From: Candidatus Omnitrophota bacterium
GTDB taxonomy: Bacteria; Omnitrophota; Gorgyraeia; Gygaellales; Gygaellaceae
Assembly: GCA_018400015.1 (NCBI GenBank)
Contig: JAGYNB010000002.1
Coordinates: 180,555-244,554 of the forward strand
Length of the DNA: 64,000 nucleotides
Direction: 5' to 3'
Shown piece by piece: positions 8,034-36,046 of this stretch. Under the pieces are notes generated by a model, which was not told the DNA's origin, searched no databases, and was given only the letters and a program-made list of their open reading frames with translations. The position numbers and the translations under genes are program-made. The first letter of the stretch is position 1, and every line of letters starts with the position of its first letter.

Positions 8034-8060
8034 TAACACATTAAACAATTGGAGTTAAAA

Positions 8061-9146: not shown

Positions 9147-9155
9147 AAAAATGTA

Positions 9156-9938: not shown

Positions 9939-9943
9939 TTATT

Positions 9944-15035: not shown

Positions 15036-15063
15036 AAACCATCTCAAAAAACGCTAAAACCTG

Positions 15064-15092
15064 TTGACAAATAATAGATTATGAAATATAGT
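15064..15092 (+). promoter_or_regulatory. sigma70-type promoter heading the pilus/c-di-GMP locus (TTGACA-17-TATAGT)
   Basis: TTGACA 15064-15069, 17-nt spacer, TATAGT 15087-15092 (alternative TATAAT at 15093-15098); AAGGAGG RBS at 15114-15120; ATG at 15129. Confidence 0.6.
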
Positions 15093-15128
15093 ATAATTAT
15101 ATAATCATAATTTTAAGGAGGCATTTAT

Positions 15129-16529
15129 ATGATTAAGCTATTTAAGAAAACGTCTATTTCTTCCAGGGGATTGCGTAGCAAGTTAGCCGTTGCTTTTGCG
15201 TTAACCTCGACCATTCCAATTCTTATAAGCGTTTATCTGATTTCACAAATTACCGATGTTTCCACTTTGGATTTACGTATCGGTTCATTTTTGATTTTGA
15301 GCCTTCTTATTGCTGTTTTTGGTTATTTTGTCTTAAACAACATAATCAATTCCATTATAAAAACTAGCAAAAAAGCTAATGCTTATATACAAGGCCAGAC
15401 TTTTGGTGGAATAAAGATTTCAACCGATGATGAGATTTCCGATTTGAATAAGGCTATTGATAAACTTAATGACCGTATAAGGGAAAATATGGAAAAGTTA
15501 AGTTTTTATGATAAGCAAACTAAGCTAGTCGGTATGGATTTGAATAAGAAAGTAATCGCTCTTTCAAGTCTATTGCAAATCGGTAGTTTTATTTCTTCGA
15601 GCAATAAAATTGATGATATTTTTTCTTTGGTTGTAGGAAAACTTTCGAATATTGAGCCAAGTTTTGAAGTATTCTTGTTTTTGGAGAATAAAAATAATGA
15701 GTTTTCTCTCGATTTTGCTTCGAATCAGGAAAAGATTAAATCTAATGTATTTACTTTATCCAGCGATTCAAAAAGAATTGTTCAGGCAATAACCAGCAAC
15801 GAACCTTTAAGATTGGATATTTCTCATTCTGAGTCTAAGACTTTAGAGCGTTTAGGAGAAATATTCAACATCAGTAGTATAGTTATTTTTCCTATTTTTG
15901 CTTGCGAACAGACAAAAGGGCTCCTAATTGTCGCTAGCACAAAAAACGATTATGCTTTTGAGGCAGGCGATATTGAACTTATAAGGTTATTTGCCCGTCA
16001 GCTTGCAATAGCTTTGGAGAAGAACCAGCTTTTTAACAAAGCGAAGAAATTGGAGACAAAAGATGAATTAACTGGTTTATACAACGAAAGTTTTATTCGA
16101 GATCGTCTAAATGAAGAGATAAAACGCGCTTTTGTTTCCCAGAGGCCGTGTTCTTTTGTTCTTTTCGGAGTGGATAAATTCCAGAATTACCTGCAGCGAA
16201 AAGGTCAGGACGGGGCGGAAGTTTCTTTAAAACATATTGCTTCTTTATTGAAAGAGTCTTCTCGGGAAATTGACAAGCCTGGTCGTTTTGGGTATTCTGA
16301 CTTTGCATTGTTATTGCCGGAAATGAATAAAAAGGAAGCGATTAATCTTGCGGAAGAGATCAGGAACAAGGTTGCTTTTGTTTTTAAAGAAGAAGACGCT
16401 GGTCTTCGTCTGACAATTTCAGCTGCTGTCAGTGAAAATCCGATTGATGGGATAAAAGCCGAAGAATTGATTTCCCATGCAAGAAATCTTTTATCGAATA
16501 AAGATTCAGACAATAAGGTTTTTCGCTAA
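15129..16529 (+). CDS. membrane-anchored GAF-like + degenerate GGDEF domain protein (PelD-like c-di-GMP receptor candidate)
   Basis: Two N-terminal TM helices and a HAMP-like linker; GGDEF-domain start LTGLYNESF; signature degenerated to GYSDF; RxxD I-site retained (REIDKPGRFGYSDF). Confidence 0.6.
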   Translation: MIKLFKKTSISSRGLRSKLAVAFALTSTIPILISVYLISQITDVSTLDLRIGSFLILSLLIAVFGYFVLNNIINSIIKTSKKANAYIQGQTFGGIKISTDDEISDLNKAIDKLNDRIRENMEKLSFYDKQTKLVGMDLNKKVIALSSLLQIGSFISSSNKIDDIFSLVVGKLSNIEPSFEVFLFLENKNNEFSLDFASNQEKIKSNVFTLSSDSKRIVQAITSNEPLRLDISHSESKTLERLGEIFNISSIVIFPIFACEQTKGLLIVASTKNDYAFEAGDIELIRLFARQLAIALEKNQLFNKAKKLETKDELTGLYNESFIRDRLNEEIKRAFVSQRPCSFVLFGVDKFQNYLQRKGQDGAEVSLKHIASLLKESSREIDKPGRFGYSDFALLLPEMNKKEAINLAEEIRNKVAFVFKEEDAGLRLTISAAVSENPIDGIKAEELISHARNLLSNKDSDNKVFR

Positions 16530-16531
16530 TA

Positions 16532-16981
16532 ATGTTTTCTCCTTTTAGGAAGGTTGTAAATAAACAATTAGGTGAATTGCTGGTTGAGCATAAAATTATC
16601 AGTGAGGCGCAATTAAAAAAAGCCCTTGTGTTGCAAAGCCAGCGTAGCGGCGCTTTAATCGGAGAATTGATAGTAGAGCTTGGTTATGCAAAGGAAGAGG
16701 ATATTGCCAATACTCTGGCAGCCCAGTACGGTTTTCCTTATTTGCCTTTGGATAATTATTCGGTCGACGATAGTATTATAAAATTGATACCGAAGAACGT
16801 TGCGAGTCAGTACTGTTTATTGGCAATAGATAAGCTTGCCAATTCAATTGTCGTAGCCACAAGCAATCCTTTGAACACCCAGGCAATCGAAGACGTTGAA
16901 TATATTACTAATTGTGATGTTCGTGTTTTTATCTCTACGGCAACGAGCATTAGAAAGAAAATCAAAGAGTACTACCAATAG
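16532..16981 (+). CDS. stand-alone MshEN / T2SS-E N-terminal domain protein (putative c-di-GMP binding)
   Basis: 149 aa; tandem MshEN-type motifs KQLGELLVEHKIISEAQLKKALVLQ and ALIGELIVELGYAKEEDIANTLAAQ followed by the GspE_N fold (YGFPYLPL). Confidence 0.7.
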   Translation: MFSPFRKVVNKQLGELLVEHKIISEAQLKKALVLQSQRSGALIGELIVELGYAKEEDIANTLAAQYGFPYLPLDNYSVDDSIIKLIPKNVASQYCLLAIDKLANSIVVATSNPLNTQAIEDVEYITNCDVRVFISTATSIRKKIKEYYQ

Positions 16982-16984
16982 TAA

Positions 16985-18715: not shown

Positions 18716-18717
18716 TT

Positions 18718-20439: not shown

Positions 20440-20440
20440 A

Positions 20441-23400
20441 ATGCAAAAAGATCTAATTATCTATATAGATGAGTTAACCGACCTTTACAATAGAAGATAC
20501 CTTTCCCAGGTTTTCCCCAAAGAAATTAAAAAAGCACAAGAAAAAAATTATAACCTTTGGTTTTTCATGATGGATTTGGATAACTTTAAAGGTATTAATG
20601 ATACATTAGGCCATTTAGCCGGAGATGATGCTTTAAAAAATCTAGCTGACATCCTAAAGAAGAATATGCGTGAGCAGGATATACTCTTTAGGTACGCCGG
20701 AGACGAATTTTCCGCAATTATTCCCGGAGGTACGCTTAATGATGTTTTGGCCGTTGCTAAAAGAATCTTAGAAAATGTCGCCAAATCTTCTTTTGGGTCT
20801 AATCCTATGCAGCCGGCAATAAAATTCACCGTGAGTATCGGAGTGTCTTGTTTTCCTGAAGATGCTGTTGAGCCCTTACGGTTAATCGATTTGGCTGACA
20901 AGGCGCTTTATGTATCAAAGCGAAAAGGCAAGAATCATATTTCCGTAGTAAGCGATGTTCCTCCAGAAGTATTAAGTCTTTATCAGACCCTAGAAAAGTT
21001 TCCTTGTCCTGTTTTTATTGATAGAGTCGAGGAATTAAACCGGCTTCTCAAATCCAGCGATGAACTTGCTAATCAAAAAAATAAAAAGAATATTTTCTTA
21101 TTTGGCAATTCCGGCATTGGAAAAACAAGGATATTACAGGAATACGGGAAAAGACTTTCCAGCAAAAACTTAAATTTGATCATTACCCGTGCAAGCGAAA
21201 AAGATCTTTTTACAAATTACCATATTTTTATAGAAGGGATATCCGGATACTTTAAAACCCATAGTTTTCAGATGGAGTTGTTGGAAGGTTTAGACGAAAG
21301 ACATAAATCCATACTTGTAGGTTTTATTCCGGAATTAAAAAGGTTTATTTCTGTTTCCGACGATGAGCTTAAAAATCTTTCCGGCAAGGCGATAAAAGAT
21401 GAAGACATAAAGATAATTTTTAAGAAATTCATTTCAAATATTACCAGAAGAAATTCTTCGGTTCTCGTAGTAGATGATTTGCAGTGGGCAGACAAAGCCA
21501 GCTTAGATCTAATAAAAGAATTTCAATCCAGCAATGATACTTTGATGGTTATTGCATCTATTTCCAGCGATTATATTGCCCAAAAAGAAACCCCGTTAGT
21601 GTTAAACGAATATATAACCAAAAATTTTCTTTCTTTTGAGAGGATTGATGTTGAGCCTTTCAATAAAGAAGAGATCGGCAAAATGGTCAATGCTGTTTTT
21701 GGTTCCCTTGAGAATTTGAATGAGTTTATTGCTTTGGTGTATTCGGTTACAAAAGGATCACCTTTATTTGTCGAAGAATTATTAAAATATTTTATTAATC
21801 GTGGGTTTGTATTTTATCGTAAGGGTAAATGGGGCTGGCTGGATATAAGAAGAGAAGATATCCCGTCAAGTATTGAAGAAGTTGTTGCTCAGCGTATCAA
21901 ATCGTTAAGCTCGGAATTAAAAGAAGTTATTACCCAGGCCTCTGTAATCGGTGAGGATTTTGAAGTAAATCTTTTGCAGAAGTTAGGCAAAAAGAATCAG
22001 GGTTATGTTATGGACTTGATTGAAACTGCCAAAAAATCCGGTCTCATACGAGAGGAAAAAGGTGCCGAAGGGGTAAGGTTCGTATTTACCAGTGCTAAAG
22101 TAAGGGATGTTTTATACGGCCTGGCTGATAAAAACCAGGTTAAGAATTTGAACCGCCAGATCGGCCAGATAAAAGAAGAGATTTACAAAGGTAATGAGGA
22201 TCAGGTGGCCGGCGAGCTGTACTACCGATTTAAAAAAGCAGAAGATGGCAAAAAAGCCTCTCGTTATGCAAAGATGGTTAAAGAAGGCCGATCTTTTGTT
22301 TATGAAAAAAGTATTCACTTCGCCAAGGGTCTTCTAGAAGAGGTTCAGGTTAGCGAACAGGAAATTCCCGATAAGGCAATTGATGTTGTTTCAGATATTA
22401 TTCGTCTTATTTACGTTTCGCAGATAAACAGCAGTCTTTACCCTAAAGGAAGCTCGATGCGCACTCAGCCATTGGCGGATTTGATAGCAAAAATGAAAAG
22501 TATTTTTGAATATGTGTTGGTGGTAAGTTTTAGTCATTTTAACGAATTTTTGGTTATTAATAATAGAATTTATGACAAGGAAAGTTTAAAAGAGACGTTT
22601 AAAAATGCTTTTATCGGGTTATTGAGGCAGAATAAAATCGAAAAAATCTCTTTTACTCCCAGTTTAAGCGTTGAAGAACTGGAAGATTTCTTGGAGTTAT
22701 TTGAAACCAGCGAAAAGGAAGGATTTAAGAATAAATTTCATCAGGAATCATTTCCTAATATCAAGGTTGAATTTATAAGTTATGAGAATTATCTTTCCAA
22801 AAGAACTAAAGACAGAGAGCAATTACAGGATATAATGCTTCTTGATTATCTTTTAGGCAAAGTTCCCGGAGAAGGTTTACAAGACAAAATGAGTATTCTT
22901 GATAAGATCCAGACGCATAGCCAGGATATTGCTTCAGCGTTAACACAGATGGCGGATAAAGTAAGTAAACAAAAAGGAGTGGATAAGGATTCCGCTCGAG
23001 CGGATATTCTTTCCGATAATTTTAAAAAGATCGCCCAGCATATTTTTAATAAAGGTGAAGGCGCTTGGGATAAATATAAAAAGGGTCTTGCTAAGACAAT
23101 ACTTTCACTTGAGCCTAATCTGCGTGAAGAATTTTTTCATAAACAGTTAAAAGAAGAGCAGGTAAAACAAGATGATATTGTTGAAGATGAGGTTGTTTCA
23201 GAAGTTTCAGAAGATGATGTTTCTGCACAGGAGGATGTTTCAACCGATGAATTAAGAGAAAAGACCCAAGAAGAAGAGCCTCGGCAGGATATTATCAAGG
23301 CTTTAGCTGGTGAATTTCCAGAAGACGTTGTTCTGGACCTTATAAAAAAAGAATACAAAGAGGGAAATAACAGCCCCGAACAATTTAAAGAGATAGTTTC

Positions 23401-24607
23401 TAAGTTTTTACCAGAAGATAAAGAACAAAAGAAAGCACTTTTAGACAAAATTATCAATACGTTAAAAGAAAACGGTGCGAAAGAAGAAGAATTGAAATTC
23501 CTTACCCAGGAAGAATCTTGGCCAAACCTTAGTTTTAGCGAAAAAATCATAGATTTTCTGAATATGAACGCTGATCGGTATGTTTATATCTCAAAGCAGT
23601 ATGGTTTTGCTTCGGTAATGGAATTCGCGCTCTCTTCCGATACAGAACAGGTTAAGAAAATACTGGAAAGGTTGGTTTATTTTATAGAGTCAGATACTCC
23701 CGAAGCGGTAAATATCGCAAAACAGGATCTTTTGGCGTTGATCGATTTAGTGTTTACTTTTAAAAAGGGTGAATTCTTGGAGTTGTTGCTTAATACATTT
23801 TTGTCTGAATTACATAAAGAACACAATAAAGAAACTATATCAATTTTTATCAATAATATCGAAAAACTCACCTATGTAGTTTTTTCAATGTCCGCATTTG
23901 ATTTGTTTACCAAGGTAATTAATGAATTAAGAAAGCTTATTAATGAAACTGACACCTTAGCTGATATAAAAGCCAATATCAATTTGGTTTTGTCTCATAT
24001 TTGTTCAGAGGAAATAATCCAGCGTCTTATTGAGCGGTTATTCAATTATGTTGATAATAATGAGGATTACGCACAGATTGCTCATGTTTTTGTCGCAATC
24101 GGGAAATCCGCAGCAAATAAGCTGATTGACGAGGCAATGTTCGAGAAAAATATAAATATCGTAGGTTATTTCGGGGGATATCTTAGAAGAAAAGCAGTGG
24201 GTAATATTTTAAACATGATGGATAAAAATGAAGTTATGGAGTTTATCAAGGATAGGCTTCAAAATGAAAAGTGGTTTATTGTACGTAATACCATTGATCT
24301 GATCATGCATATAGATAATCCTGAATATATTTCTTTGCTTGATATAGTAAAAGATAACAATGATTCCCGAGTGAGAAGAAAATTGCTTTTTGTCTTGGGT
24401 AGATTTAAGAGTAAACAGGCACTGGATATTTGTTATTCTCTTGCAAACGATAGAGATGATGCTATTGCCATGGGAGCGATAAAATTAATTGCTTCAATCG
24501 GAGAGAAAGACTCTGTTGAGTTCTTAAATAATTTAAGTGTAAAACATTCTTTACGCGATGAAAAGAATAAAGCTATTGAAGAATTAAAACAGAGATTAAA
24601 TAAATAA
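20441..24607 (+). CDS. 1388-aa multidomain signalling protein: GGDEF domain (AGDEF variant, with I-site) + AAA_16/STAND-type P-loop NTPase + C-terminal HEAT-repeat array
   Basis: N-terminal LTDLYNRRYL...REQDILFRYAGDEF (20696-20710) with RxxD I-site; P-loop LFGNSGIGKT (about 21103-21126) and hhhhDDLQWAD Walker B typical of AAA_16; acidic linker; HEAT/PBS-lyase-like repeats near the C-terminus (RVRRKLLFVLGRF...AIAMGAIKLIASIG). Confidence 0.7.
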   Translation: MQKDLIIYIDELTDLYNRRYLSQVFPKEIKKAQEKNYNLWFFMMDLDNFKGINDTLGHLAGDDALKNLADILKKNMREQDILFRYAGDEFSAIIPGGTLNDVLAVAKRILENVAKSSFGSNPMQPAIKFTVSIGVSCFPEDAVEPLRLIDLADKALYVSKRKGKNHISVVSDVPPEVLSLYQTLEKFPCPVFIDRVEELNRLLKSSDELANQKNKKNIFLFGNSGIGKTRILQEYGKRLSSKNLNLIITRASEKDLFTNYHIFIEGISGYFKTHSFQMELLEGLDERHKSILVGFIPELKRFISVSDDELKNLSGKAIKDEDIKIIFKKFISNITRRNSSVLVVDDLQWADKASLDLIKEFQSSNDTLMVIASISSDYIAQKETPLVLNEYITKNFLSFERIDVEPFNKEEIGKMVNAVFGSLENLNEFIALVYSVTKGSPLFVEELLKYFINRGFVFYRKGKWGWLDIRREDIPSSIEEVVAQRIKSLSSELKEVITQASVIGEDFEVNLLQKLGKKNQGYVMDLIETAKKSGLIREEKGAEGVRFVFTSAKVRDVLYGLADKNQVKNLNRQIGQIKEEIYKGNEDQVAGELYYRFKKAEDGKKASRYAKMVKEGRSFVYEKSIHFAKGLLEEVQVSEQEIPDKAIDVVSDIIRLIYVSQINSSLYPKGSSMRTQPLADLIAKMKSIFEYVLVVSFSHFNEFLVINNRIYDKESLKETFKNAFIGLLRQNKIEKISFTPSLSVEELEDFLELFETSEKEGFKNKFHQESFPNIKVEFISYENYLSKRTKDREQLQDIMLLDYLLGKVPGEGLQDKMSILDKIQTHSQDIASALTQMADKVSKQKGVDKDSARADILSDNFKKIAQHIFNKGEGAWDKYKKGLAKTILSLEPNLREEFFHKQLKEEQVKQDDIVEDEVVSEVSEDDVSAQEDVSTDELREKTQEEEPRQDIIKALAGEFPEDVVLDLIKKEYKEGNNSPEQFKEIVSKFLPEDKEQKKALLDKIINTLKENGAKEEELKFLTQEESWPNLSFSEKIIDFLNMNADRYVYISKQYGFASVMEFALSSDTEQVKKILERLVYFIESDTPEAVNIAKQDLLALIDLVFTFKKGEFLELLLNTFLSELHKEHNKETISIFINNIEKLTYVVFSMSAFDLFTKVINELRKLINETDTLADIKANINLVLSHICSEEIIQRLIERLFNYVDNNEDYAQIAHVFVAIGKSAANKLIDEAMFEKNINIVGYFGGYLRRKAVGNILNMMDKNEVMEFIKDRLQNEKWFIVRNTIDLIMHIDNPEYISLLDIVKDNNDSRVRRKLLFVLGRFKSKQALDICYSLANDRDDAIAMGAIKLIASIGEKDSVEFLNNLSVKHSLRDEKNKAIEELKQRLNK

Positions 24608-25077
24608 TGCCATTTAAAAGACAACCCATTTACAAAAAGCAGTTGCTGGGCCAGATTTTCTTAAAAAGCGGAATTATTTCCAAAGAGCAACTTAAGGAAG
24701 CGCTTGAATCACAAAAGAAAGAAGGCGGTTTTTTAGGCGGCGTATTGATAAAATTAGGTTATCTTACGGAGATGGATTTGGTTATGGGGCTTTCCAGTCA
24801 GTGTAGCATACCGTATCTGCCGCCCTTAAGGTACAAGATTCCTAAAAATGTTTCTGAAAATTTAAGCGAAGAATTGTTGCGTAAAAATAGCTTTGTTCCG
24901 ATTGATAAATTTCATGATACATTAACTGTTTGTATGGTTAATCCTTTGGACGATCGCTCAATAACAGAGATTACAAATATTACTAATCTTGAAGTTCTTG
25001 TCTGCATTGCCACCAGAGATGAAATTGAGAAAGCGATTAATAACCTATATAAAAAATCTGGTAAAAATGCGTTGTAA
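24607..25077 (+). CDS. stand-alone MshEN / T2SS-E N-terminal domain protein (putative c-di-GMP binding), second copy
   Basis: 156 aa; both 24-residue motifs intact (QLLGQIFLKSGIISKEQLKEALESQ and FLGGVLIKLGYLTEMDLVMGLSSQ) followed by GspE_N fold; ATG overlaps the stop of the giant gene. Confidence 0.7.
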   Translation: MPFKRQPIYKKQLLGQIFLKSGIISKEQLKEALESQKKEGGFLGGVLIKLGYLTEMDLVMGLSSQCSIPYLPPLRYKIPKNVSENLSEELLRKNSFVPIDKFHDTLTVCMVNPLDDRSITEITNITNLEVLVCIATRDEIEKAINNLYKKSGKNAL

Positions 25078-25145
25078 TTTGAGTTTTTATAGTATAAAAT
25101 AATAATAATATTTAAATTATTTAATATTAGAGAAAGGATTTTTAA

Positions 25146-26351
25146 ATGGCTCAGTTTAAATATTATGCAAAAGATAAAAAAGGAGCTTCTGTTAATGGTG
25201 TTTTGGAAGCAGAGAATAAGAATGTTGTTATCGAAGAGTTAAGGCGCAGACAGTTAACGATAATTTCCTTAAAGGAAGCAAAAAAAGCATTCAGTATCGG
25301 AGGTCCAAAGAAAGTCAGCGCTGATGATCTGGTAATTTTCTCTAGACAATTATCCACAATGGTAAATTCCGGTATTCCTTTGGTGCAGTCATTGGATATT
25401 TTAGGTGAACAGCTTGAGAATAAAGAGTTTCGTTCGATAATTATGACCATAAGAGACGATATCCAGACTGGCCTCAGTCTTTCCGGTGCGTTTGCAAAAC
25501 ACCCCAAGGTTTTTTCAACACTTTATATCAATATGGTCAAAGCCGGCGAGACTTCCGGTATGCTCGATGAAATATTAGACAGGCTGGCAATATATCTGGA
25601 AAAATCCAATTCTTTGAAGAAGAAAATAAAATCGGCCATGATTTATCCTGCTTTGGTTTTTAGCATGGCGATTATTATTACTTCAGGATTGTTGATTTTC
25701 GTTGTTCCTCAGTTTAAATCTATTTTTAGCTCTTTTGGAGGTAAACTTCCGTTGCCAACACAGATTTTGATTGCCATAAGCGATAATTTCTCAAAGATAG
25801 TACCTGCTTTGATTGTAATGTTGATCCTTGCCGCAGTTATATTTTCGCGTGTTATTAAAACGCCTAAAGGAAGATATAAGTTTGATCAGTTCAAATTAAA
25901 GGTATTTATTTTTGGCAAGATGTTTCAGATGGTTGCGGTCAGTAGATTCTCTAGAACGCTTTCGACTTTGGTAAGAAGCGGTGTTTCCATTCTTACAGCT
26001 TTAGATATCGTTTCCAAGACAACGGGGAATAAAGTTATTGAGCAGGCGTTAGATAACGTAGGTACTAATATAAAAGAAGGTAAATCTATTGCGTTGCCGT
26101 TAGCGGAAGCAAAGATATTTCCTCCTATGGTTGTAAGGATGATTTCCGTAGGCGAACAGTCCGGAGAACTGGAGAAGATGTTGTCAAAAATCAGTGATTT
26201 TTATGATGAACAGGTGGATATTGCCGTATCGGGCTTATCCAGTGTAATCGAGCCTGTAATTATTATATTCTTGGGTGTTGTGATCGGTTCTATCGTTATC
26301 GCTATATTTTTGCCGATTTTGAAGATGTCTTCTCTTGTTGGGGGCATGTAA
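25146..26351 (+). CDS. pilC: type IV pilus inner-membrane platform protein PilC (GspF family)
   Basis: Two T2SSF repeats and three TM segments; 401 aa; RBS GAGAAAGGA. Confidence 0.85.
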   Translation: MAQFKYYAKDKKGASVNGVLEAENKNVVIEELRRRQLTIISLKEAKKAFSIGGPKKVSADDLVIFSRQLSTMVNSGIPLVQSLDILGEQLENKEFRSIIMTIRDDIQTGLSLSGAFAKHPKVFSTLYINMVKAGETSGMLDEILDRLAIYLEKSNSLKKKIKSAMIYPALVFSMAIIITSGLLIFVVPQFKSIFSSFGGKLPLPTQILIAISDNFSKIVPALIVMLILAAVIFSRVIKTPKGRYKFDQFKLKVFIFGKMFQMVAVSRFSRTLSTLVRSGVSILTALDIVSKTTGNKVIEQALDNVGTNIKEGKSIALPLAEAKIFPPMVVRMISVGEQSGELEKMLSKISDFYDEQVDIAVSGLSSVIEPVIIIFLGVVIGSIVIAIFLPILKMSSLVGGM

Positions 26352-26356
26352 GAGGC

Positions 26357-26824
26357 ATGAGAAAAAGTTTTTCTCTAATTGAGTTAGTGTTTGCTCTTGG
26401 AATATTGGGTCTTGTAGCAGCGACTTTCATGATGAGTTTTGCCAATTATTCTAATCTTAATGAGACCAATATTAATGTTAACCTAGCATATATAAAGGCC
26501 CGTTCGGTTGTTGAAGAATTGCGTTCCATCGATGATTCAGATGAAGGAGATTTAAAGACTGCGAAGGATAGCTGTGGTACTGAAAAATTAGTAGAAAACG
26601 GTCTTTTGGAAGGAGTTGGCCAGCCTGACACAGGGATTTATTCAGTGTATCTGAAGTGTCTAAGGGATGCAGGCGGGTCGTGTCTTGACAGGACATTTGA
26701 TGTAACGGTATCATTGTGTTGGGTGCAGTCAAACGGAAGAGTAATTGGCGAAAGGGATTCTGATAACGAAGAATGCGAAGATTCTATCTATGAATATACC
26801 AGCAGTTTTACCACTGCTAAATAA
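26357..26824 (+). CDS. type IV pilin-like protein (major pilin candidate; atypical Ser at position -1)
   Basis: N-terminus MRKS/FSLIELVFALGILGLVAA with Glu+5, hydrophobic alpha1-N helix, Cys-rich C-terminal region; 155 aa. Confidence 0.6.
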   Translation: MRKSFSLIELVFALGILGLVAATFMMSFANYSNLNETNINVNLAYIKARSVVEELRSIDDSDEGDLKTAKDSCGTEKLVENGLLEGVGQPDTGIYSVYLKCLRDAGGSCLDRTFDVTVSLCWVQSNGRVIGERDSDNEECEDSIYEYTSSFTTAK

Positions 26825-26827
26825 AAG

Positions 26828-27445
26828 ATGATTTCTAAAATTAAGCTTTTTTCCAGAAAAGGTTTCAGCATACTGGAGTTGATTACGGCGATTGGGATTT
26901 TTTCGTTTTTGACCATATTTTTATTTTCCGGGATTATTACCGTGCGCAATATCTGGCTTAAGTCTTCTGCAAAGATAAAATTGGTTGATGAAGGGATGAA
27001 TGCTTTAAGCGTTATGAAATCAGAATTAGCCCAGTCAGGCAGGGATTATTTTAAGATTACGAATTCAGCTAGCGATTATTGCGCCAACAATGATACTAAT
27101 ACCGGGAGTTTGATTATTTTTCCTGTACCGATTTTAATTAGTGGTAAATATCATGATATCAACGGATCAATTAATTGGGGATATGACGGCGATACGAATA
27201 AAAAAATTCGCTATAGAGTCTATGATAATAAGCTTTTTCGTGAGATAGCAGATACGTCTTCAAGCTCTTGCGATACTATCGAGAGCAAAGTATTAGCTTA
27301 CAATATGGATAGCGACTCGCCTGTTACTTTTGAGTATGATACCGGCAGTCACACGATAGCACTAACTATTAATTTAGAAGATAGGGATTTTGCGAGTAAT
27401 GAAGTTGATTTAAGCCTGGAAGAGATTATTTACCCGGAAAATTAA
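26828..27445 (+). CDS. prepilin-type N-terminal cleavage/methylation domain protein (minor pilin or pseudopilin)
   Basis: Canonical G/FSILELITAIGIFS prepilin motif with Glu+5; 205 aa. Confidence 0.65.
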   Translation: MISKIKLFSRKGFSILELITAIGIFSFLTIFLFSGIITVRNIWLKSSAKIKLVDEGMNALSVMKSELAQSGRDYFKITNSASDYCANNDTNTGSLIIFPVPILISGKYHDINGSINWGYDGDTNKKIRYRVYDNKLFREIADTSSSSCDTIESKVLAYNMDSDSPVTFEYDTGSHTIALTINLEDRDFASNEVDLSLEEIIYPEN

Positions 27446-27458
27446 GAAGGTGTGACCT

Positions 27459-29906
27459 ATGAAAAATAAAAAAGGAATTGCAATAATCGTGACATATTCT
27501 ATATTGGTGCTTTTGTTGATTTTATCCGTTGCGTTTATGTACCAAAGTATTAATGCTAATTATTTGAGCAAAAGAAGAGTTTCAAATAACAAAGCGCGCG
27601 CCAATGCAGAAAAAGGCATTGCGCTCATAAAAAGAGAGCTTGGTTTTAGAAGCCAGAGCAATCCGTTGATCACGCATTCAGTTAACGCTTCCACAGACGC
27701 CTTAGAAAGTAATAATATCAATCCTTCATTACATGTACCAGGTGTTTCCATATTTAATGACGACAGCCAGCCTGATATAGACGGTTGTTTCAATGGCTAT
27801 GATGACGATTCAAATCTTATTTTTAGGGTTAAAACATTCAATAAAGAAAGTTCTTCAGGGGATGTGGTTATTATCAGTCAGGGCATTGACGCAGATAGCA
27901 AAGCATATTTGGCTTCCACGCTTAGTTCTTCCAGTCTTTACCAATATTTTATGTTTTATGAAGGTAAGACATATTTTTTTGGTTCAACTAATATAGACGG
28001 TAAAGGTATAGGAAAGATATTTGTCAATGGTGATGCGGGTTTTACCAGTCCCCAGCTTAAAGATTTGGCTAGTTTTGAAGTTGCCGGAGACATGAGCAAT
28101 TATTATTACGGGTATCTTAATCCCTCTATTTTGGATAGTTTAGCTGCAGACGGCCCTGGTATCACTAACGGTGCTCCCACCCCTTGTCTTTATGTGGATA
28201 CATCTGTTGCCGACCCTGATTATGACTATAGCGATCCCGCTAATCCCGCCAAGCATGATTTTAATGGCGATGGAGTGGTTAATTATAAGGATTGGATATA
28301 TTCTCCTGCTGACCCTCAACCGTGGAACGATAATTCAAGTGCTTATGCCCGGTTTCAGCCGTATACAAGCACTCCTTATGAATGGCGTGACATAGATACG
28401 CATTTTTATAATCCGTCTGGTTTCGGTGACCAGTTTATTTTTACTTCAGAAAGCGGAGCAGTTTCTGATTATGGTTTTAATCTTCCCGGCAACGGAGACG
28501 AATCTGCACTATCAACTTCTTGGGACTTTAATTTATTTGGCAGTGCTTCCAGTTATGATGATATAACCTGGCAGTATTATGATTACCAGACCGGTACGAT
28601 TAAAGCTGCGGACAGTGACTATTGGGATTTTGTAGAGGATAGGTATGGTTTGGAAATTCCTGATTATTTAAGGAATTTAGGTAGTGTTGAAACGCAGTCT
28701 GTCAATTATCTGAATACGGAAAAGCAGCCTGAGTGGCAGTCTTGGCTTGACGGTAAATCAATATCAATGGATGACGGTAGTACTAAAACCTTAGGTGAAA
28801 TAATTAAAACCGACCAGGATTCGATCACCCAGCCCGAGGTAAGCACTTATTATTATGATTTGGCTAATGATCCGGCAACAGGAATATATATAAATCCTGC
28901 GCAGTTGATTAATGGAACTGTTACCGATGAAAAAGTCCAGAAATTAATCGATGAGCAATGTATTACAGTCACGCAGTTTTATAATAATGTTTATCCGGCT
29001 TATGATAAAAAAGGAACAACCAATAATCCAGAAGACGATATTACTTATCCTGAGAAGTCAGTAAAAATTGATGTTGCCTGCGTAAAGGCTTTATCTGATG
29101 ACGCTTCAGATTCAGTGAAAGCTAATATTATTTATGTCGAAGGGGTAAAAACTTCCGTACAGGGCCAGGAATGGGATAATACGCCCGCCGCCGGAGAATA
29201 TAAAAATCTTCCTGTTTCTACGCTGTTGGTTAATGGCGAAAGCGTTCCCGAAGGGGGCTTAACTGTAGTTGCCCCTTATCAGGTATATGTAAAAGGAAAT
29301 TTTAATACTGTTGATCCCCAGTCGTCATCGGTTATCACAAATTCATATTATTATGCAATTTCTGATAATTATCAGGATTATGGAACTGACAGGGAGAGTA
29401 TTGCCTCGACATGCAGTGGGGATTTTTATGATTCCAATTGCGACGGCCCGCAGCATTTGCCAGGACTTTATGATTATTATACAGACATATACGGGAAAGT
29501 AGGCGCTTTGGAATATCCCTATGAAGCAAATGAGGCAGTGAATTATCCGGGTAAAAATAATCCTGAAGTCAATGGCGGTAACTATGACGGTAATTTTACT
29601 CAAAGAATATCTTTAGTCAGTCCTAATCCGTCAGTTTATTTTATTGGCAGAGGCTCAGGCACTTTGAATCGGATTGGTTCGATTATTGAGTCTAAAAGTT
29701 GGGGAGCTTATTATACTCCAGGTGCGTATGATCGCGGCAGGGTCAATTACGGTAATCCTATTGGTAGGTACAGTTCACTTGGATTAAAACAAGCTTACGA
29801 TACAATGCTGGAAACAGACAAACCTCCGGGTGATTACAGCGGCACCTCTAGCGGTTTGTTTGTTGAGGTATCGGAAAATGATTTTTTAGTTAATACTAAA
29901 TTTTAA
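27459..29906 (+). CDS. large PilX_N-domain pilus-associated protein (putative tip or adhesin protein, PilY1-like role)
   Basis: N-terminus KKGIAIIVTYSILVLLLILSVAF resembles PilX_N; 815 aa rich in D/N/Y/G/S; contains an EF-hand-like loop DFNGDGVVNYKD (about 28257-28292). Confidence 0.55.
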   Translation: MKNKKGIAIIVTYSILVLLLILSVAFMYQSINANYLSKRRVSNNKARANAEKGIALIKRELGFRSQSNPLITHSVNASTDALESNNINPSLHVPGVSIFNDDSQPDIDGCFNGYDDDSNLIFRVKTFNKESSSGDVVIISQGIDADSKAYLASTLSSSSLYQYFMFYEGKTYFFGSTNIDGKGIGKIFVNGDAGFTSPQLKDLASFEVAGDMSNYYYGYLNPSILDSLAADGPGITNGAPTPCLYVDTSVADPDYDYSDPANPAKHDFNGDGVVNYKDWIYSPADPQPWNDNSSAYARFQPYTSTPYEWRDIDTHFYNPSGFGDQFIFTSESGAVSDYGFNLPGNGDESALSTSWDFNLFGSASSYDDITWQYYDYQTGTIKAADSDYWDFVEDRYGLEIPDYLRNLGSVETQSVNYLNTEKQPEWQSWLDGKSISMDDGSTKTLGEIIKTDQDSITQPEVSTYYYDLANDPATGIYINPAQLINGTVTDEKVQKLIDEQCITVTQFYNNVYPAYDKKGTTNNPEDDITYPEKSVKIDVACVKALSDDASDSVKANIIYVEGVKTSVQGQEWDNTPAAGEYKNLPVSTLLVNGESVPEGGLTVVAPYQVYVKGNFNTVDPQSSSVITNSYYYAISDNYQDYGTDRESIASTCSGDFYDSNCDGPQHLPGLYDYYTDIYGKVGALEYPYEANEAVNYPGKNNPEVNGGNYDGNFTQRISLVSPNPSVYFIGRGSGTLNRIGSIIESKSWGAYYTPGAYDRGRVNYGNPIGRYSSLGLKQAYDTMLETDKPPGDYSGTSSGLFVEVSENDFLVNTKF

Positions 29907-29917
29907 ATAGGCATTTA

Positions 29918-30571
29918 ATGGCGCAAATAAATTTACTACAGACGAGAGCGGTTTTAAAAACTAAAAAAGCAAAGGCGGATAAAGGTGCTGCCAGCGCTAA
30001 GAAGTTTTCTTTTGACTTTAAAATTGACTTTCGCAGGATGCCCAGGTGGTTTTTTGCCATTGCCATAGGCTGGATTGTTTTTTTGGCACTTGGTGAAACG
30101 ATAATGATTTTAAAGTTAAATGATTCCAAGCGAAAACTAAAGATCCTTGAAACAGAAGGCAGTTTTTTTTCAAAAAGCCCCAAAGAGATAGAGGATTTAA
30201 AAAAGAAGAAAAAAAGCCTTCAGGACGCCTTAGGAATTATCGAAGGATTTCTGATTACCAAAACGCCTTTTTCACAGGCGCTTAATATTATAAGTGATCA
30301 GATAATTGACGGGGTTTGGCTTGAGAAGATATTTTTTAATTCCAAGAAAATCGGTAAAGACAAAGAAGAGATCACTATAAAAATAAACGGTAAAGTTTAC
30401 TCGGCAATCTCGCAAGAGCAGATAGATATATTGGGACAGTTTTCCAATGGTTTAAAAAATAATCCTTATTTTGAATTATTGTTTAGCAGTTTGCAGGTTG
30501 GTAATCTTAAAAATGTAGATTATATGGGATTTGATGTTTTGGATTTTGAAATGGAGGTATCTTTAAGATAA
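29918..30571 (+). CDS. pilN: type IV pilus assembly protein PilN-like
   Basis: N-terminal INLLQTR (INLLP-type) motif, single TM segment, periplasmic coiled-coil plus ferredoxin-like region; 217 aa. Confidence 0.7.
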   Translation: MAQINLLQTRAVLKTKKAKADKGAASAKKFSFDFKIDFRRMPRWFFAIAIGWIVFLALGETIMILKLNDSKRKLKILETEGSFFSKSPKEIEDLKKKKKSLQDALGIIEGFLITKTPFSQALNIISDQIIDGVWLEKIFFNSKKIGKDKEEITIKINGKVYSAISQEQIDILGQFSNGLKNNPYFELLFSSLQVGNLKNVDYMGFDVLDFEMEVSLR

Positions 30572-30575
30572 TATT

Positions 30576-31157
30576 ATGGACTTTGATATTAAAAGAATTA
30601 TAGAATGGGTTAAGTTTAGGAAAGTGGAAGTTTCTATTCTTGCGGGGTTATTTGTTATTGGCCTAATATTATCATTTTTGCTATTTCAACCACAGGCGAG
30701 AAAAATCCAGGAATACAATAATTCCTTAATCTCAAGCTCTAAGGATACAAGCAATCTGCGTACAGCGCAAGTAGAATTAAACGAGTTAAAAAAAGAAATT
30801 ACTGTTATTGAAGAGACTTTAGCAGAACATGAAAAAAAACTCTTTTCTCAGGAAGATACTCAGGCATTTTTAAATTATATAAACAGGCTCGCGAAGTTTT
30901 ATAACGTGCGCATTCTAAAGATCAATCCTTTATCACAGGTTGAAAACGAAGTTAAGTCTTTGGATAAGGTGTATCTGGCAATGCCTTATCGGTTGAGTTT
31001 AACCTGTAGCTATCATAATCTAGGGAAATTCCTGAATAAACTTGAGCAGTCAAAGGATAGTTTTGTAAGGGTTGATAGTTTGTCTATACAGGCCGACAAC
31101 AGCAATATGAGAGAGCATAAAGTGGAGTTAGGGATAACTATTTTTTCCATTAAATAA
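30576..31157 (+). CDS. pilO: type IV pilus assembly protein PilO-like
   Basis: Single N-terminal TM segment then coiled coil; size and position between pilN and pilP. Confidence 0.6.
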   Translation: MDFDIKRIIEWVKFRKVEVSILAGLFVIGLILSFLLFQPQARKIQEYNNSLISSSKDTSNLRTAQVELNELKKEITVIEETLAEHEKKLFSQEDTQAFLNYINRLAKFYNVRILKINPLSQVENEVKSLDKVYLAMPYRLSLTCSYHNLGKFLNKLEQSKDSFVRVDSLSIQADNSNMREHKVELGITIFSIK

Positions 31158-31158
31158 T

Positions 31159-31545
31159 ATGAAAAAGATAATTTTATTAATTATGTTTTTGAGTTTCTCA
31201 ATAATTGCTAGTGCCAGTGAAAATGATTTTGAACAAAGGCTTAATTTTGTGTATAATGATAATAATAAGCGCGATCCGTTTATCCCTTTACTTGATAAAG
31301 ACGGGTTGCGACCAAGATCGGATTTATTTGAGAAAGCTGAACTTCCGATAAAAATTGATCTATCAGGTATTGTCTGGAATAAACAAGTGCAATTTGCTAT
31401 AATTAATGGTAAAATAGTGAAAGAAAATGAAGAAGTTACAAGAGGTCTTACTTTAGAAAAAATTAATTCTGATAACGTGGTTTTAGAGTATGGAGGAAGA
31501 AGTACTAAGGTGTATATAGGAGGCCCTAAGAAGGATGATAAGTAG
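31159..31545 (+). CDS. pilP: type IV pilus assembly protein PilP-like
   Basis: Signal peptide, conserved RDPF motif (NKRDPFIPLL), C-terminal beta domain; 128 aa. Confidence 0.6.
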   Translation: MKKIILLIMFLSFSIIASASENDFEQRLNFVYNDNNKRDPFIPLLDKDGLRPRSDLFEKAELPIKIDLSGIVWNKQVQFAIINGKIVKENEEVTRGLTLEKINSDNVVLEYGGRSTKVYIGGPKKDDK

Positions 31546-33100
31546 TAAAAGAATAAAGTTTATATTTGTTTTTTTATTGTGCTTAGGTGTTTGTATATAT
31601 ACACTTAACGCAGAAGAGTTTAATCCTGCTGAGTTTGGCCAGGAAGGATTTGATCCTGCTTTTCAGGCAGTGCCACCTATTCAAACCGCACAAGTTATCA
31701 AAAAAGATAGCGTTCAAAAGCAGGAAGAGGAAATTCCAGCCAAAGAACAAGCTTTTGAGGCAGGTGGGGTTTACAACAATGAGGATTTTGTGAATTTGGC
31801 TTTTGACAATGCCGATATCCGCGATGTTATAAAAGTTTTAGCTGCAAGAAGCGATATGAATATTATTGTCGGTGAGGGTGTTCAAGCAAATGTTACCATG
31901 AAGCTAAAAGATGTAATTTGGGAGTCAGCCCTGGAATTAATCCTAAATACGTATAATCTTACCTATCAAAAAGAAGGCAATCTTATTAGAGTTATGACGC
32001 TTACTGAATCTGAAGAGGAAGCGAAGAAAATTCCAATGATAACTAAGATCATTCCGCTTAATTTCGCACAAACTCCTGAAATGTCCGCTTCCATTGCCAA
32101 GATGCTTTCTGCAAGAGGGTCTGTACAGGAAAATGTACGTACGAATACATTGATTATCACCGATATCCCTTCGCGCGTTAAGATGATAGAAGAGACGATT
32201 ACGAAACTTGATACACCTACACCCCAGGTTTTAATCGATGTTTTGATTATGGATATCACCTTAACCGATAGCGATGATCTGGGTGTTGACTGGCAGGCAA
32301 TCACGACAAACCAGTTATCAGATTTAAGCAGTGCCAATAGAACAAAGTCGGTCACTTTAGAGCAGCCATCAGGCATGTCTACAACAGGCGGTATTGCAGG
32401 AGATCCGGCATTTACGCTGGCTCTTGTTAAAAAGTTTGGTGAAGCTAATTTTACTGCTAACCTGCAGGCATGGATAGAAAATAAAGAAGCCAAGGTTTTG
32501 GCAAATCCGAAGATTTTAACGCTTGATAATCAGGAAGCTAAAATCGAAATAATAAATCAGTTTCCATATCTGCAGACTTCAAGTTCGACTGACGGCGGCA
32601 GCACTAGCGGAACAGAATATAAAAATATAGGAACTAGCCTTAGCGTAACAGCGCATATTACTAATGACGGACATATTACTTTAAATTTAAAACCGGAACA
32701 GGATATAAATGCCGGAACCGACTCTACAACCGGTGCGCCTATTGTTGATACCCGTTCTGCCGAGACCAATGTTTTGGTAAAAGATGGCCAGACCGTTGCC
32801 TTGGGCGGTTTAAGGCGTGTTGATAAGTCTACTACTATAAGCAAAGTACCTATTTTGGGGGATATTCCGTTTATCGGCAAGATATTCCAGAATAGGCAAA
32901 TTGACGACAAGGACGTTGAACTTGTAATGTTTGTTACTCCTCATATCATAAAGGATGCTGGCATAACTGATAAAGAAAGAATGTACATAAAAGAAAATCT
33001 TCCTGGTCCACAAAGGCCTTTTTTGCGCAACAAGCCCTTTGTTTTAGAGGAAAAATACGATTTAAGGTCCCCTTCATATAAAACTAAAGGGAGTAAATAA
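31535..33100 (+). CDS. pilQ: type IV pilus secretin PilQ (short form, no AMIN domains)
   Basis: Signal peptide, N0/N1-type domains, C-terminal secretin domain (VLANPKILTLDNQEAKIEI...GGLRRVDKSTTISKVPILGDIPFIGKIFQ). Confidence 0.85.
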   Translation: MISSKRIKFIFVFLLCLGVCIYTLNAEEFNPAEFGQEGFDPAFQAVPPIQTAQVIKKDSVQKQEEEIPAKEQAFEAGGVYNNEDFVNLAFDNADIRDVIKVLAARSDMNIIVGEGVQANVTMKLKDVIWESALELILNTYNLTYQKEGNLIRVMTLTESEEEAKKIPMITKIIPLNFAQTPEMSASIAKMLSARGSVQENVRTNTLIITDIPSRVKMIEETITKLDTPTPQVLIDVLIMDITLTDSDDLGVDWQAITTNQLSDLSSANRTKSVTLEQPSGMSTTGGIAGDPAFTLALVKKFGEANFTANLQAWIENKEAKVLANPKILTLDNQEAKIEIINQFPYLQTSSSTDGGSTSGTEYKNIGTSLSVTAHITNDGHITLNLKPEQDINAGTDSTTGAPIVDTRSAETNVLVKDGQTVALGGLRRVDKSTTISKVPILGDIPFIGKIFQNRQIDDKDVELVMFVTPHIIKDAGITDKERMYIKENLPGPQRPFLRNKPFVLEEKYDLRSPSYKTKGSK

Positions 33101-34980: not shown

Positions 34981-36046
34981 TCAAAAAGGTTTTTTAGGCA
35001 TAGGCAGTAGTCTTTTCAAGCAAAAAGAAAAGAATTTTGTAGGTATTGATATCGGTTCATCAAGCATTAAGATTGTAAGGCTTGTTCCGAATAGAGATAA
35101 TAAGAAAATGCAGTTAAGTGATTTTGCCGATATTGCTTTTGAAGAACAGGTCAGCACCGATCAAATAAAACGCGCGGTTGATGAAGCTTTAAAGCAAACC
35201 AATATTCCTAAAGATAGCGAAGCAGTTTTTAATATCCCCAATAATTCTGCCATAACCCGTTTTATAGTAATGCCGAAGATGAATCATGACGACCTGAGAA
35301 AAGCCATTGGTTATGAACTTGAAAAATACATTGCTTTTGATACAAAAGAGGCTGTTTATGATTTTCGTATTTTGGATGACCTGCAGACTAAAGAAGGCCA
35401 TTTAAAAGTTCTTTTGGTTATTACAAAGAAAGAGACTGTTGATGAAAGGGTAAAGGCGATCGAAGATGCAGGGCTTATTCCTAAAGTGGTAAGTATTGAT
35501 TCTGTTGTTATTCCTAATACATTTTATCTTAATCATATAGATAAAAAAGATAAGAATATCGCCATAGTAAACCTTGGATCTCGGCTATGCAGTATCAGTG
35601 TTGTTAAAGGCGGAATATCCAACTTTATGCGTGATATAGCAATTGGAATAGAAAATATAGTAAGTTTGGTTTCGGAAAAACTGGAAATGAACAAAACTGA
35701 TATTATTAATTCTATTATGAAACCTGAATTGCAGTCTAATGATTTTAAAGATATTATTAATTCAGTTTTGTCTAATTTGTTGAACGAACTTTACCTTTCG
35801 TTCGATTATTACGAGACGCAGTTCGAAACTTCTATTGACGAGATTTATATTACCGGCGGACTTTCTCAGCAGCCGGGTTTGATTGACTTTTTATCCAGTA
35901 ATTTAGGTATATCAGTTAATAAACTTAATCCCCTATTGAATCTTGAAGTTGCTGCCGAATTGAAGTCCAAGATTGATTCAAAGAAGGATATTATGGCTGT
36001 AAGCATAGGTCTTGCCTTAGAGGAATCCGATCTAAAATATTTTTAA
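34970..36046 (+). CDS. pilM: type IV pilus assembly protein PilM (actin-like ATPase fold)
   Basis: FVGIDIGSSSIKIVRL N-terminal ASKHA phosphate-1 motif, PilM_2 domain organisation; 358 aa. Confidence 0.8.
   Translation: MALDQKGFLGIGSSLFKQKEKNFVGIDIGSSSIKIVRLVPNRDNKKMQLSDFADIAFEEQVSTDQIKRAVDEALKQTNIPKDSEAVFNIPNNSAITRFIVMPKMNHDDLRKAIGYELEKYIAFDTKEAVYDFRILDDLQTKEGHLKVLLVITKKETVDERVKAIEDAGLIPKVVSIDSVVIPNTFYLNHIDKKDKNIAIVNLGSRLCSISVVKGGISNFMRDIAIGIENIVSLVSEKLEMNKTDIINSIMKPELQSNDFKDIINSVLSNLLNELYLSFDYYETQFETSIDEIYITGGLSQQPGLIDFLSSNLGISVNKLNPLLNLEVAAELKSKIDSKKDIMAVSIGLALEESDLKYF

Follow-up and report, generated by a model that had tools for sequence, protein, structure and literature searches.

Results

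A 1388-residue GGDEF-STAND-HEAT protein in a pilus gene cluster

The gene described here encodes a protein of 1388 residues and lies in a cluster for a type IV pilus or type II secretion system (T2SS)-like machine, within a stretch of 64,000 nucleotides (nt) from a Candidatus Omnitrophota genome (contig JAGYNB010000002.1). We refer to this whole stretch as the window. From its N terminus onwards, the protein consists of a GGDEF effector, a nucleotide-binding domain (NBD), a helical domain (HD), a winged-helix domain (WHD) and repeats, which is the same plan as that of NLR/STAND proteins. When the evidence was combined, the reading we came to lean towards was that of an NLR-like diguanylate cyclase (effector, nucleotide-binding oligomerisation domain or NOD, sensor) dedicated to the type IV pilus/T2SS-like machine of an Omnitrophota bacterium.

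Translation bore out the open reading frame (ORF) that an earlier note on this DNA had proposed, and the motifs quoted there were all located in the product: REQD at residues 77-80, RYAGDEF at 84-90, GNSGIGKT at 222-229 and VLVVDDLQWAD at 341-351. The GGDEF, AAA_16/STAND and HEAT assignments held as well, with Pfam and NCBIfam scores well over the cutoffs. The Pfam GGDEF model matched residues 8-166 (E 4e-43, 147 bits against a cutoff of 23.8) in agreement with NCBIfam TIGR00254 (164 bits), AAA_16 matched residues 195-364 (E 9e-15, 56 bits against 32.6), ATPase_2 residues 192-447 (41 bits against 33.2) and HEAT_2 residues 1299-1382 (E 1.6e-12, 48 bits against 27.7). There were also weak NCBIfam matches to CpeY and NblB, which are HEAT proteins of the PBS-lyase type. 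The long helical middle region with an acidic linker was described correctly as far as the helices and the linker (residues ~905-950) are concerned, but a compact alpha/beta domain (residues ~644-778) lies inside it too. Nor does the gene directly adjoin pilC, as had been supposed: a gene of 156 residues that encodes nothing but an MshEN domain intervenes. The coordinates of all features are collected in Table 1.

To place the protein in a family, we searched 5.8 billion proteins. The search returned an identical NCBI protein, another of 83% identity named Candidatus Gygaella obscura (Omnitrophota), and about 100 full-length relatives of 1300-1450 residues with the identical Pfam set at 21-35% identity. 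The full-length relatives came from NCBI, JGI, ENA and Logan assemblies, and the named ones belonged to Omnitrophota or Planctomycetota. With residues 450-1200 as the query against 1.84 billion cluster representatives, 381 proteins were found at E<=1e-10, most of which matched at the same position and were of similar length. In the sister group of the family, a GGDEF-AAA_16 protein bears TPR repeats in place of HEAT; this group is included in the alignment of 92 sequences (25-85% identity) on which the residue counts given below are based. The alignments revealed no hypervariability in the family. A chimeric assembly, a possibility raised in the earlier note, was ruled out: full-length relatives occur in independent assemblies, the Gygaella orthologue shows the same gene structure from two independent samples, and the GC content is even over the ORF and its neighbouring genes. 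Overall, many lineages of Omnitrophota have kept the fusion although they are deeply diverged (21-35% identity), and its enzymatic motifs are invariant.

The catalytic residues of the GGDEF head are invariant

The head scores over the curated cutoff of the domain models (PF00990 and TIGR00254), while the canonical GG(D/E)EF signature is replaced by AGDEF. A86, G87, D88 and E89 were present in 92/92 sequences and F90 in 91/92. Since AGDEF is invariant in the clade, it is a hallmark and not a recent lesion. Just as invariant (92/92) were D45, D47, K50, N53, D54, G57, H58, D62, R84, S132, G134, D153 and K160. The complete set of metal, GTP and catalytic residues (D45, K50, N53, H58, D62, R84, D88, E89 and K160) is thus present throughout the alignment, at positions that we take to be the equivalents of PleD D327, K332, N335, H340, D344, R366, E370/E371 and K442. 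D62 and N53, both retained, are presumably the positions of guanine specificity.

By contrast, the I-site was variable. R77 was found in 50/92 sequences (K in 28/92) and D80 in 77/92, and a complete RxxD was present in about half. An invariant catalytic set together with a variable I-site suggests that selection has acted on catalysis or on the binding of GTP, and not on reception at the I-site. The cyclase VCA0965 of V. cholerae, which likewise has AGDEF, is reported as active (PMC3974145); AGDEF therefore does not exclude catalysis. From these conserved positions, we consider it likely that the GGDEF head is an active cyclase.

A STAND-type nucleotide switch follows the head

That the NTPase is of the STAND type, as had been suggested from its motifs, agreed with the AAA_16 score, the Walker motifs and the predicted NBD-HD-WHD fold. 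The module has a P-loop with a Walker A motif of the form GxxGxGK[ST] and a Walker B motif of the form hhhhD[DE], an NBD-HD-WHD order with the GxP motif in the HD, and the tripartite plan of STAND proteins. The DDxQWxD signature was also conserved. An AlphaFold2 (AF2) model of residues 1-660, made with the 92 sequences, reached a predicted local distance difference test score (pLDDT) of 87.6 and a predicted template modelling score (pTM) of 0.80, and its alpha/beta NBD is succeeded by a helical domain, a winged-helix region and further helices.

We also looked for signs of related classes. Residues 193-631 gave a partial match to TIGR03903, a TOMM kinase/cyclase fusion, which covered only its NTPase part and scored 81 bits against a cutoff of 705.75, which places the protein outside that class III cyclase group. 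Guanylate_cyc gave no Pfam match in the protein, and no LuxR-type or other helix-turn-helix (HTH) family was among its Pfam matches at E<=1. The defence models of PADLOC had no match to the protein or its neighbours, apart from one at chance level (E 0.0056). TnsC and the archaeal ATPase_2 proteins can be named beside the STAND switch model.

The C-terminal half is separable from the head and the switch

The AF2 model of residues 641-1388 (pLDDT 86.5) consisted of four parts, namely an alpha/beta domain, helices, a disordered insert and a solenoid. The solenoid is of the HEAT/ARM kind, both by a repeat model over its cutoff and by its predicted fold. The alpha/beta domain carries the conserved N..LYPxGS motif, after which we call it the LYPxGS domain, and is ordered as helix-helix-hairpin-helix-strand-helix-helix-strand. 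It had no Pfam match and no sequence relative in the PDB, and residues 644-904 as a whole are a conserved domain without family assignment. In the distant Planctomycetota-type members P0073, P0080, P0088 and P0092 the LYPxGS unit was tandemly duplicated, so it behaves as a repeatable domain.

The C-terminal half also occurs by itself. Stand-alone proteins of 710-772 residues begin at the 'PLS...LYPxGS' segment and can be aligned with the window protein as far as its C terminus, and their start coincides with the disordered junction at residues 620-642. One of them, P0193, is encoded in a locus with the order PilB, C-terminal half, MshEN (153 residues), PilC, pilin-like protein, PilO, T2SSB-like protein and secretin, in which there is no GGDEF-STAND part. 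Another lies outside any pilus locus. Conversely, the ORF P0208, which may be either a split gene or a truncation, holds the N-terminal half only, and its stop codon lies 55 nt short of the contig end. The alignments and gene orders indicate that the C-terminal half is a module in its own right with a link to the pilus.

The gene is paired with a stand-alone MshEN gene

The intervening gene of 156 residues encodes MshEN_B; a second stand-alone protein, MshEN_A, is encoded upstream of the two extension ATPases PilB1 and PilB2. PF05157 (MshEN) was found in all four proteins. In NF053729, a 53-residue model of the cyclic di-GMP (c-di-GMP) motif with a cutoff of 38, MshEN_A (52.7), MshEN_B (55.9) and PilB1 (50.7) scored above and PilB2 (27.4) below. 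We then compared the proteins with the relaxed motif RLGxxhhxxGhhxxxxLxxxLxxQ, which spans 24 residues and occurs in two copies 5 residues apart (PMC5013675). Both 24-residue copies are present in MshEN_B, 5 residues apart, and each deviates at one position (Arg1 to L or F); the copies of MshEN_A have 2 and 1 mismatches. The motifs of PilB1 and PilB2 have 2-3 or more mismatches and have lost Gly. The two ATPases also missed the PilB equivalog cutoff, with 641 and 633 against 675.65.

Across 16 orthologues of MshEN_B, Gly3, the hydrophobic positions, Gln24 and the 5-residue spacer were all kept, and a Lys was conserved 1-2 residues upstream of position 1. The Gly and Gln positions of MshEN read guanine O6/N7 and the ribose-phosphate, and charged residues including Arg9 alter affinity less than fivefold (PMC5013675). 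Binding of c-di-GMP by MshEN_B is plausible from this conservation. The stand-alone MshEN proteins may be a distinct MshEN subfamily.

To see how constant this neighbourhood is, we searched the ORFs of 26 loci with the window proteins and counted the 17 distinct Omnitrophota-type loci for which downstream DNA was present. A scan of metagenomes by a 6-sequence mid-module alignment gave 14 loci, all Omnitrophota-type; the survey is biased to the relatives of the query. An MshEN-only gene directly followed the 1388-residue-type gene or the C-terminal half in 16 of the 17 loci. pilC came next in 11, and the pilB pair was upstream in 9. Since the surrounding gene order varies between lineages, the pairing of the big gene with the MshEN gene is not simply frozen synteny. 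The tie to a pilus operon, on which the earlier note had built its functional guess, is thus real and is kept across lineages at 25-35% identity. Given this pairing, we think it fairly likely that the protein is functionally linked to the pilus via MshEN.

The rest of the pilus cluster

The cluster runs in the order TM (transmembrane)-GAF protein, MshEN_A, PilB1, PilB2, 1388-residue protein, MshEN_B, PilC, two prepilin-like proteins, an 815-residue protein, a 217-residue protein, PilO, T2SSB-like protein, secretin, TPR/coiled-coil protein and PilM. The genes are separated by gaps of 1-13 nt, except for one gap of 68 nt and three short overlaps. With an extension ATPase, a platform protein, PilM, PilO, a secretin and prepilin-like genes, the cluster has the parts of a pilus/T2SS-type machine. 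Neither a major pilin nor a retraction ATPase was identified within the pilus cluster of the window. There is no PilT-type gene in it, and the loci L084 and L086 have a T2SSE gene of 410-420 residues without MshEN.

The first gene of the cluster encodes the TM-GAF protein, whose GGDEF domain (GYSDF) has lost the DxD and NDxxGH positions and has REID as its RxxD. Its orthologues at ~34% identity have SDSEF, with SDID instead of RxxD. As this domain is degenerate, the 1388-residue protein is the only credible source of c-di-GMP in the locus. The degenerate domain itself could be a protein-interaction or receptor domain.

Table 1. Features of the 1388-residue gene and its neighbours, in positions of the window.
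Feature	Position	Strand	Remarks
Whole gene	20441..24607	+	ATG start; 1388 residues: GGDEF, STAND NTPase, LYP alpha/beta domain, helical region, HEAT solenoid
GGDEF domain, residues 8-169	20462..20947	+	predicted catalytically competent diguanylate cyclase
I-site RxxD (REQD, residues 77-80)	20669..20680	+	five residues before the active-site motif
Active-site motif AGDEF, residues 86-90	20696..20710	+	family-wide hallmark
STAND nucleotide-binding oligomerisation module, residues ~192-560	21014..22120	+	NBD, helical domain with GxP motif, winged helix
Walker A GNSGIGKT, residues 222-229	21104..21127	+	G225, G227 92/92; K228 91/92; S/T229 92/92
Walker B and AAA_16 signature VLVVDDLQWAD, residues 341-351	21461..21493	+	D/E345, D/N/E346, D351 each 92/92
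GxP-type motif G(N/S)PLFxEE, residues 439-446, helical domain	21755..21778	+	G439 92/92, P441 88/92, F443 87/92, E446 90/92
Flexible junction of N- and C-terminal halves, residues ~620-642	22298..22366	+	pLDDT <50, disordered; C-half-only proteins begin just after
LYPxGS alpha/beta domain, unclassified, residues ~644-778	22370..22774	+	AF2 pLDDT 88-96; Y667 and P668 invariant
Conserved helical region, residues ~779-904	22775..23152	+	motifs MLxDYLLGK and LEPxLR
Acidic disordered linker, residues ~905-950	23153..23290	+	pLDDT ~40, poorly conserved, insertion relative to most homologues
HEAT/ARM alpha-solenoid, residues ~951-1388	23291..24604	+	solenoid fold in AF2 and HEAT_2 over cutoff
MshEN_B, 156 residues, stand-alone, predicted c-di-GMP receptor	24607..25077	+	Pfam MshEN; ATG overlaps the stop of the big gene as TAATG, translationally coupled
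MshEN_A, 149 residues, second stand-alone MshEN	16532..16981	+	Pfam MshEN, NF053729
PilB1 and PilB2	16985-18715 and 18718-20439	+	extension-type T2SSE ATPases, own N-terminal c-di-GMP motifs degraded
TM-GAF protein, degenerate GGDEF (GYSDF)	15129..16529	+	first cluster gene, membrane-anchored
PilC/GspF platform protein	25146..26351	+	
Rest of pilus cluster	26357..36046	+	two prepilin-like genes, 815-residue protein without assignment, 217-residue gene, PilO, T2SSB-like, secretin, TPR/coiled-coil protein, PilM

Two further genes of the cluster have no assigned family. The 217-residue gene gave no significant family match. The 815-residue protein (27459-29906) has an N-terminal hydrophobic helix and no Pfam, NCBIfam or PADLOC match. 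In L081, L084 and L095 it likewise follows the prepilin-like genes, as it does in L086 on the other strand; a role at the pilus tip or as an adhesin is possible.

The pilus cluster is directly preceded by an elongasome operon, mreB-mreC(-mreD)-PBP2-rodA (8049-13304), and the same holds for L083 (1-4470), from a lineage of only 34% identity. Between this operon and the pilus cluster there is a radical SAM gene (13305-15035) in both the window and Gygaella. The 93-nt gap before the TM-GAF gene contains a sigma-70-like site (15064-15092: TTGACA, 17 nt, TATAGT), which agrees at 11/12 positions and is the best in 13000-32900, tied with an intragenic site at 26685-26714. The site fits a start of the pilus operon there, and promoter-like sites overall were no commoner than in shuffled sequence. 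Across the window (1-64000), all ORFs of at least 250 residues are on the + strand, GC skew is positive throughout and the cumulative skew rises steadily, which makes it an unusually long co-oriented stretch.

The Planctomycetota homologue has a different surrounding. A gene of 156 residues downstream of it was considered as a possible MshEN and rejected, as it is not an MshEN protein. About 8 kb away, in L085 (21698-24125, minus strand), a 364-residue HD_5/HD protein, possibly HD-GYP-like, adjoins an 833-residue HEAT-repeat protein. Together they might form a phosphodiesterase counterpart built on a comparable scaffold.

Discussion

How a STAND switch may control c-di-GMP at the pilus

Diguanylate cyclases are active only when two GGDEF domains meet, and STAND modules oligomerise upon sensor engagement and ATP binding. 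The domain order of the protein suggests how these two properties could be joined. The C-terminal half would bind a component of the pilus (MshEN_B, PilB or PilC) and thereby hold the STAND module off. Once the machine changed its state and ATP was bound, the NOD would be able to oligomerise, and oligomerisation would pair two GTP-loaded GGDEF heads, resulting in synthesis by induced proximity. The c-di-GMP would be made locally, and the RxxD I-site of the window protein would limit the output by product inhibition. Finally, the stand-alone MshEN proteins would read c-di-GMP in trans, act on PilB1/PilB2 or PilC, and tune pilus assembly.

Our confidence differs between the parts of this scheme. 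For activation of the cyclase by the STAND module, we find the case evenly balanced. The sensor would be the pilus-linked C-terminal half, so the input is probably the state or a component of the pilus motor. On the output side, MshEN_A and MshEN_B are the probable readers, with PilB or PilC as their target. A self-contained circuit, in which the LYPxGS and HEAT module binds the pilus and reports motor state to the STAND switch, the switch drives the AGDEF cyclase, and a pulse of c-di-GMP is decoded by the trans-acting MshEN mini-proteins, to which the receptor role of the PilB N termini has passed, is a more speculative proposal that we put forward only tentatively and hold to be rather improbable in its entirety.

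Several points weigh against a dedicated pilus cyclase. First of all, the first Gly of the GGDEF signature is replaced by Ala, and the AGDEF domain of NbdA is described as degenerate (bioRxiv 10.64898/2026.03.20.713172). At the receiving end, position 1 of both MshEN_B motifs is L, F or V in the 16 orthologues, and not Arg, which in MshE of V. cholerae is stacked against guanine; its loss could weaken or alter c-di-GMP binding. As for the genomic context, the close relative L101 (1-2258; 64% identity in the matched part) is the one exception without an MshEN gene downstream. There, an orf155-like prepilin gene directly follows instead of the MshEN-only gene and pilC, on a contig of only 2.4 kb. 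The Planctomycetota homologue and the GGDEF-AAA_16-TPR variant lie outside pilus loci, so the N-terminal half can work in other contexts, and no phosphodiesterase gene was identified at the locus. Lastly, we infer both that the STAND module oligomerises and which way the regulation runs.

Alternative explanations

The Ala of AGDEF had led the earlier note to propose that cyclase activity may be reduced or abolished and that the head could sense c-di-GMP through its RxxD I-site. On such a view, the head is catalytically dead and the protein is a nucleotide-gated scaffold that responds to c-di-GMP made elsewhere. Degenerate GGDEF receptors are a known class, the window protein keeps RxxD at the canonical spacing, and the substituted signature and the description of NbdA point the same way. 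Nevertheless, the alignment runs counter to this idea. A sensor should show a conserved I-site and a decayed active site; here the pattern is the opposite, with all catalytic and GTP positions in 92/92 sequences, R77 in little more than half and D80 in 77/92. Furthermore, an AGDEF cyclase is reported active, as noted above for VCA0965, and the only other GGDEF protein of the cluster is clearly degenerate (GYSDF/SDSEF), leaving one candidate source of c-di-GMP. We therefore regard an I-site sensor as unlikely and drop that part of the original proposal, while its other part, a nucleotide-gated regulator linked to the pilus, is still plausible.

Equally unlikely, in our estimate, is that the protein is mainly a structural accessory of the pilus acting via its C-terminal half, and that GGDEF-STAND is an add-on of certain lineages that hardly affects the regulation of the pilus, one possibility being that it feeds the global c-di-GMP pool. 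It is true that a C-half-only protein fills the same operon slot without GGDEF-STAND, and that relatives of the N-terminal half outside pilus loci bear other sensors such as TPR. On the other hand, an add-on of this kind is hard to reconcile with a fusion whose enzymatic motifs are all invariant and which many lineages of Omnitrophota have kept down to 21-35% identity, or with the tight coupling of the gene to that of a predicted c-di-GMP receptor.

Two further explanations seem very improbable. If, like a Hypr GGDEF, the head made another product such as cGAMP or c-di-AMP, or if it only bound GTP as an allosteric sensor for STAND, the atypical signature would be accommodated, as would MshEN partners that lack the guanine-stacking Arg and possibly bind a different ligand. 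Hypr enzymes, however, replace the Asp equivalent to PleD D344. In the present family D62 and N53 are invariant, and the MshEN Gly and Gln positions that read guanine are conserved (positions as in PMC5013675). An anti-phage or conflict STAND of the Avs/NLR-like kind, in which GGDEF makes an alarm nucleotide on detection of an invader and the pilus location is incidental or phage-related, would match the effector-STAND-repeat plan typical of prokaryotic NLR-like defence proteins and the mention of GGDEF heads as rare nucleotide-generating effectors of conflict systems (PMC7159879), but is opposed by the lack of PADLOC support for the protein or its neighbours, by a syntenic place in a housekeeping pilus operon across distant lineages, unlike that of mobile defence islands, and by a family without hypervariability and without a nuclease, TIR or pore effector.

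Comparison with known systems

That a cyclase head can be combined with a STAND module and a repeat sensor is already known from actinobacterial proteins such as Rv0386, Rv1358 and Rv2488c of M. tuberculosis, which have the architecture class III adenylyl cyclase-STAND(AAA_16/NB-ARC-like)-TPR(-HTH). These proteins and TIGR03903 are the closest in logic to the dedicated pilus cyclase proposed here: they share an N-terminal cyclase head that needs dimerisation, an AAA_16-type STAND module and a C-terminal helical-repeat sensor. The window protein differs from them in having a GGDEF head, whose predicted product is a cyclic dinucleotide, a LYP and HEAT sensor instead of TPR, no HTH output and a place in a pilus operon. 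It differs from the MalT/LAL regulators of the STAND class, to which it does not belong, in that it has no LuxR-type HTH and its effector is enzymatic and N-terminal. In fold, the GGDEF domain resembles the class III cyclases (Pei and Grishin 2001, as cited in PMC7159879), with which it has a common architecture of the domain.

The closest in biology are the MshEN receptors of the MshE/PilB type, namely V. cholerae MshE, M. xanthus PilB, C. perfringens PilB2 and T. thermophilus PilF. In our case, unlike in these, the best motifs are on two separate proteins of ~150 residues, the motifs of the ATPases are degraded, the receptor gene is paired with a cyclase gene, and the Arg of position 1 is replaced. 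In these receptors, c-di-GMP controls the pilus extension ATPase via MshEN/GSPII with its two 24-residue motifs (PMC5013675, PMC11656802).

Specific cyclases placed beside their c-di-GMP-responsive machine offer another comparison. Apart from SadC-PilO, such pairs reportedly include DgcP-FimV in P. aeruginosa and DgcJ-NfrB in E. coli, the latter being the cyclase/synthase pair, with an MshEN glycosyltransferase, of a study on local control. DgcJ, SadC and DgcP are membrane or PAS/REC-type cyclases with N-terminal sensors; unlike the window protein, they have no STAND module, no HEAT scaffold and no fusion to an accessory module of a pilus operon. The literature describes the local pairing of a cyclase with a pilus part in SadC-PilO of P. 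aeruginosa (PMC11656802), a synthase with an MshEN domain under local c-di-GMP control (PMC8669469), and a cyclase local to its c-di-GMP-responsive machine in P. aeruginosa (PMC7033161). FimX-PilZ-PilB of Xanthomonas and Pseudomonas is similar in that a multidomain c-di-GMP protein and a small adaptor act on PilB (PMC8389850 and PMC5595344). It differs in that FimX is a degenerate GGDEF-EAL receptor, the adaptor is PilZ and not MshEN, and there is no NTPase switch.

The architecture had been called undescribed. In the literature searched, which covers few subscription journals, we found no description of a GGDEF-STAND-HEAT architecture, of a stand-alone MshEN partner or of a HEAT cofactor of PilB, and the Omnitrophota genome papers examined do not mention the architecture. 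The claim was nevertheless overstated: hundreds of homologues are annotated as 'diguanylate cyclase' in the databases, and the underlying cyclase-STAND-repeat logic is known.

Implications for Omnitrophota

Most diguanylate cyclases are governed by sensor domains upstream of GGDEF, whereas here GGDEF is the N-terminal effector. If confirmed, induced-proximity activation by a STAND module would join the known controls of c-di-GMP synthesis; the protein would then be the first case of STAND/NLR-type activation of a diguanylate cyclase, and its C-terminal part would represent a new class of pilus cofactor. A cyclase, a separable pilus HEAT module and a stand-alone MshEN protein in one locus provide a testable case of local c-di-GMP signalling in which the receptor function has been moved off PilB. 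In the uncultivated Omnitrophota, secretion and pilus genes have been noted as neighbours of giant proteins for which an action on other cells has been proposed (bioRxiv 10.64898/2026.06.07.730766). For this phylum of ultra-small, possibly host-dependent bacteria, our findings point to a conserved regulatory layer on the pilus.

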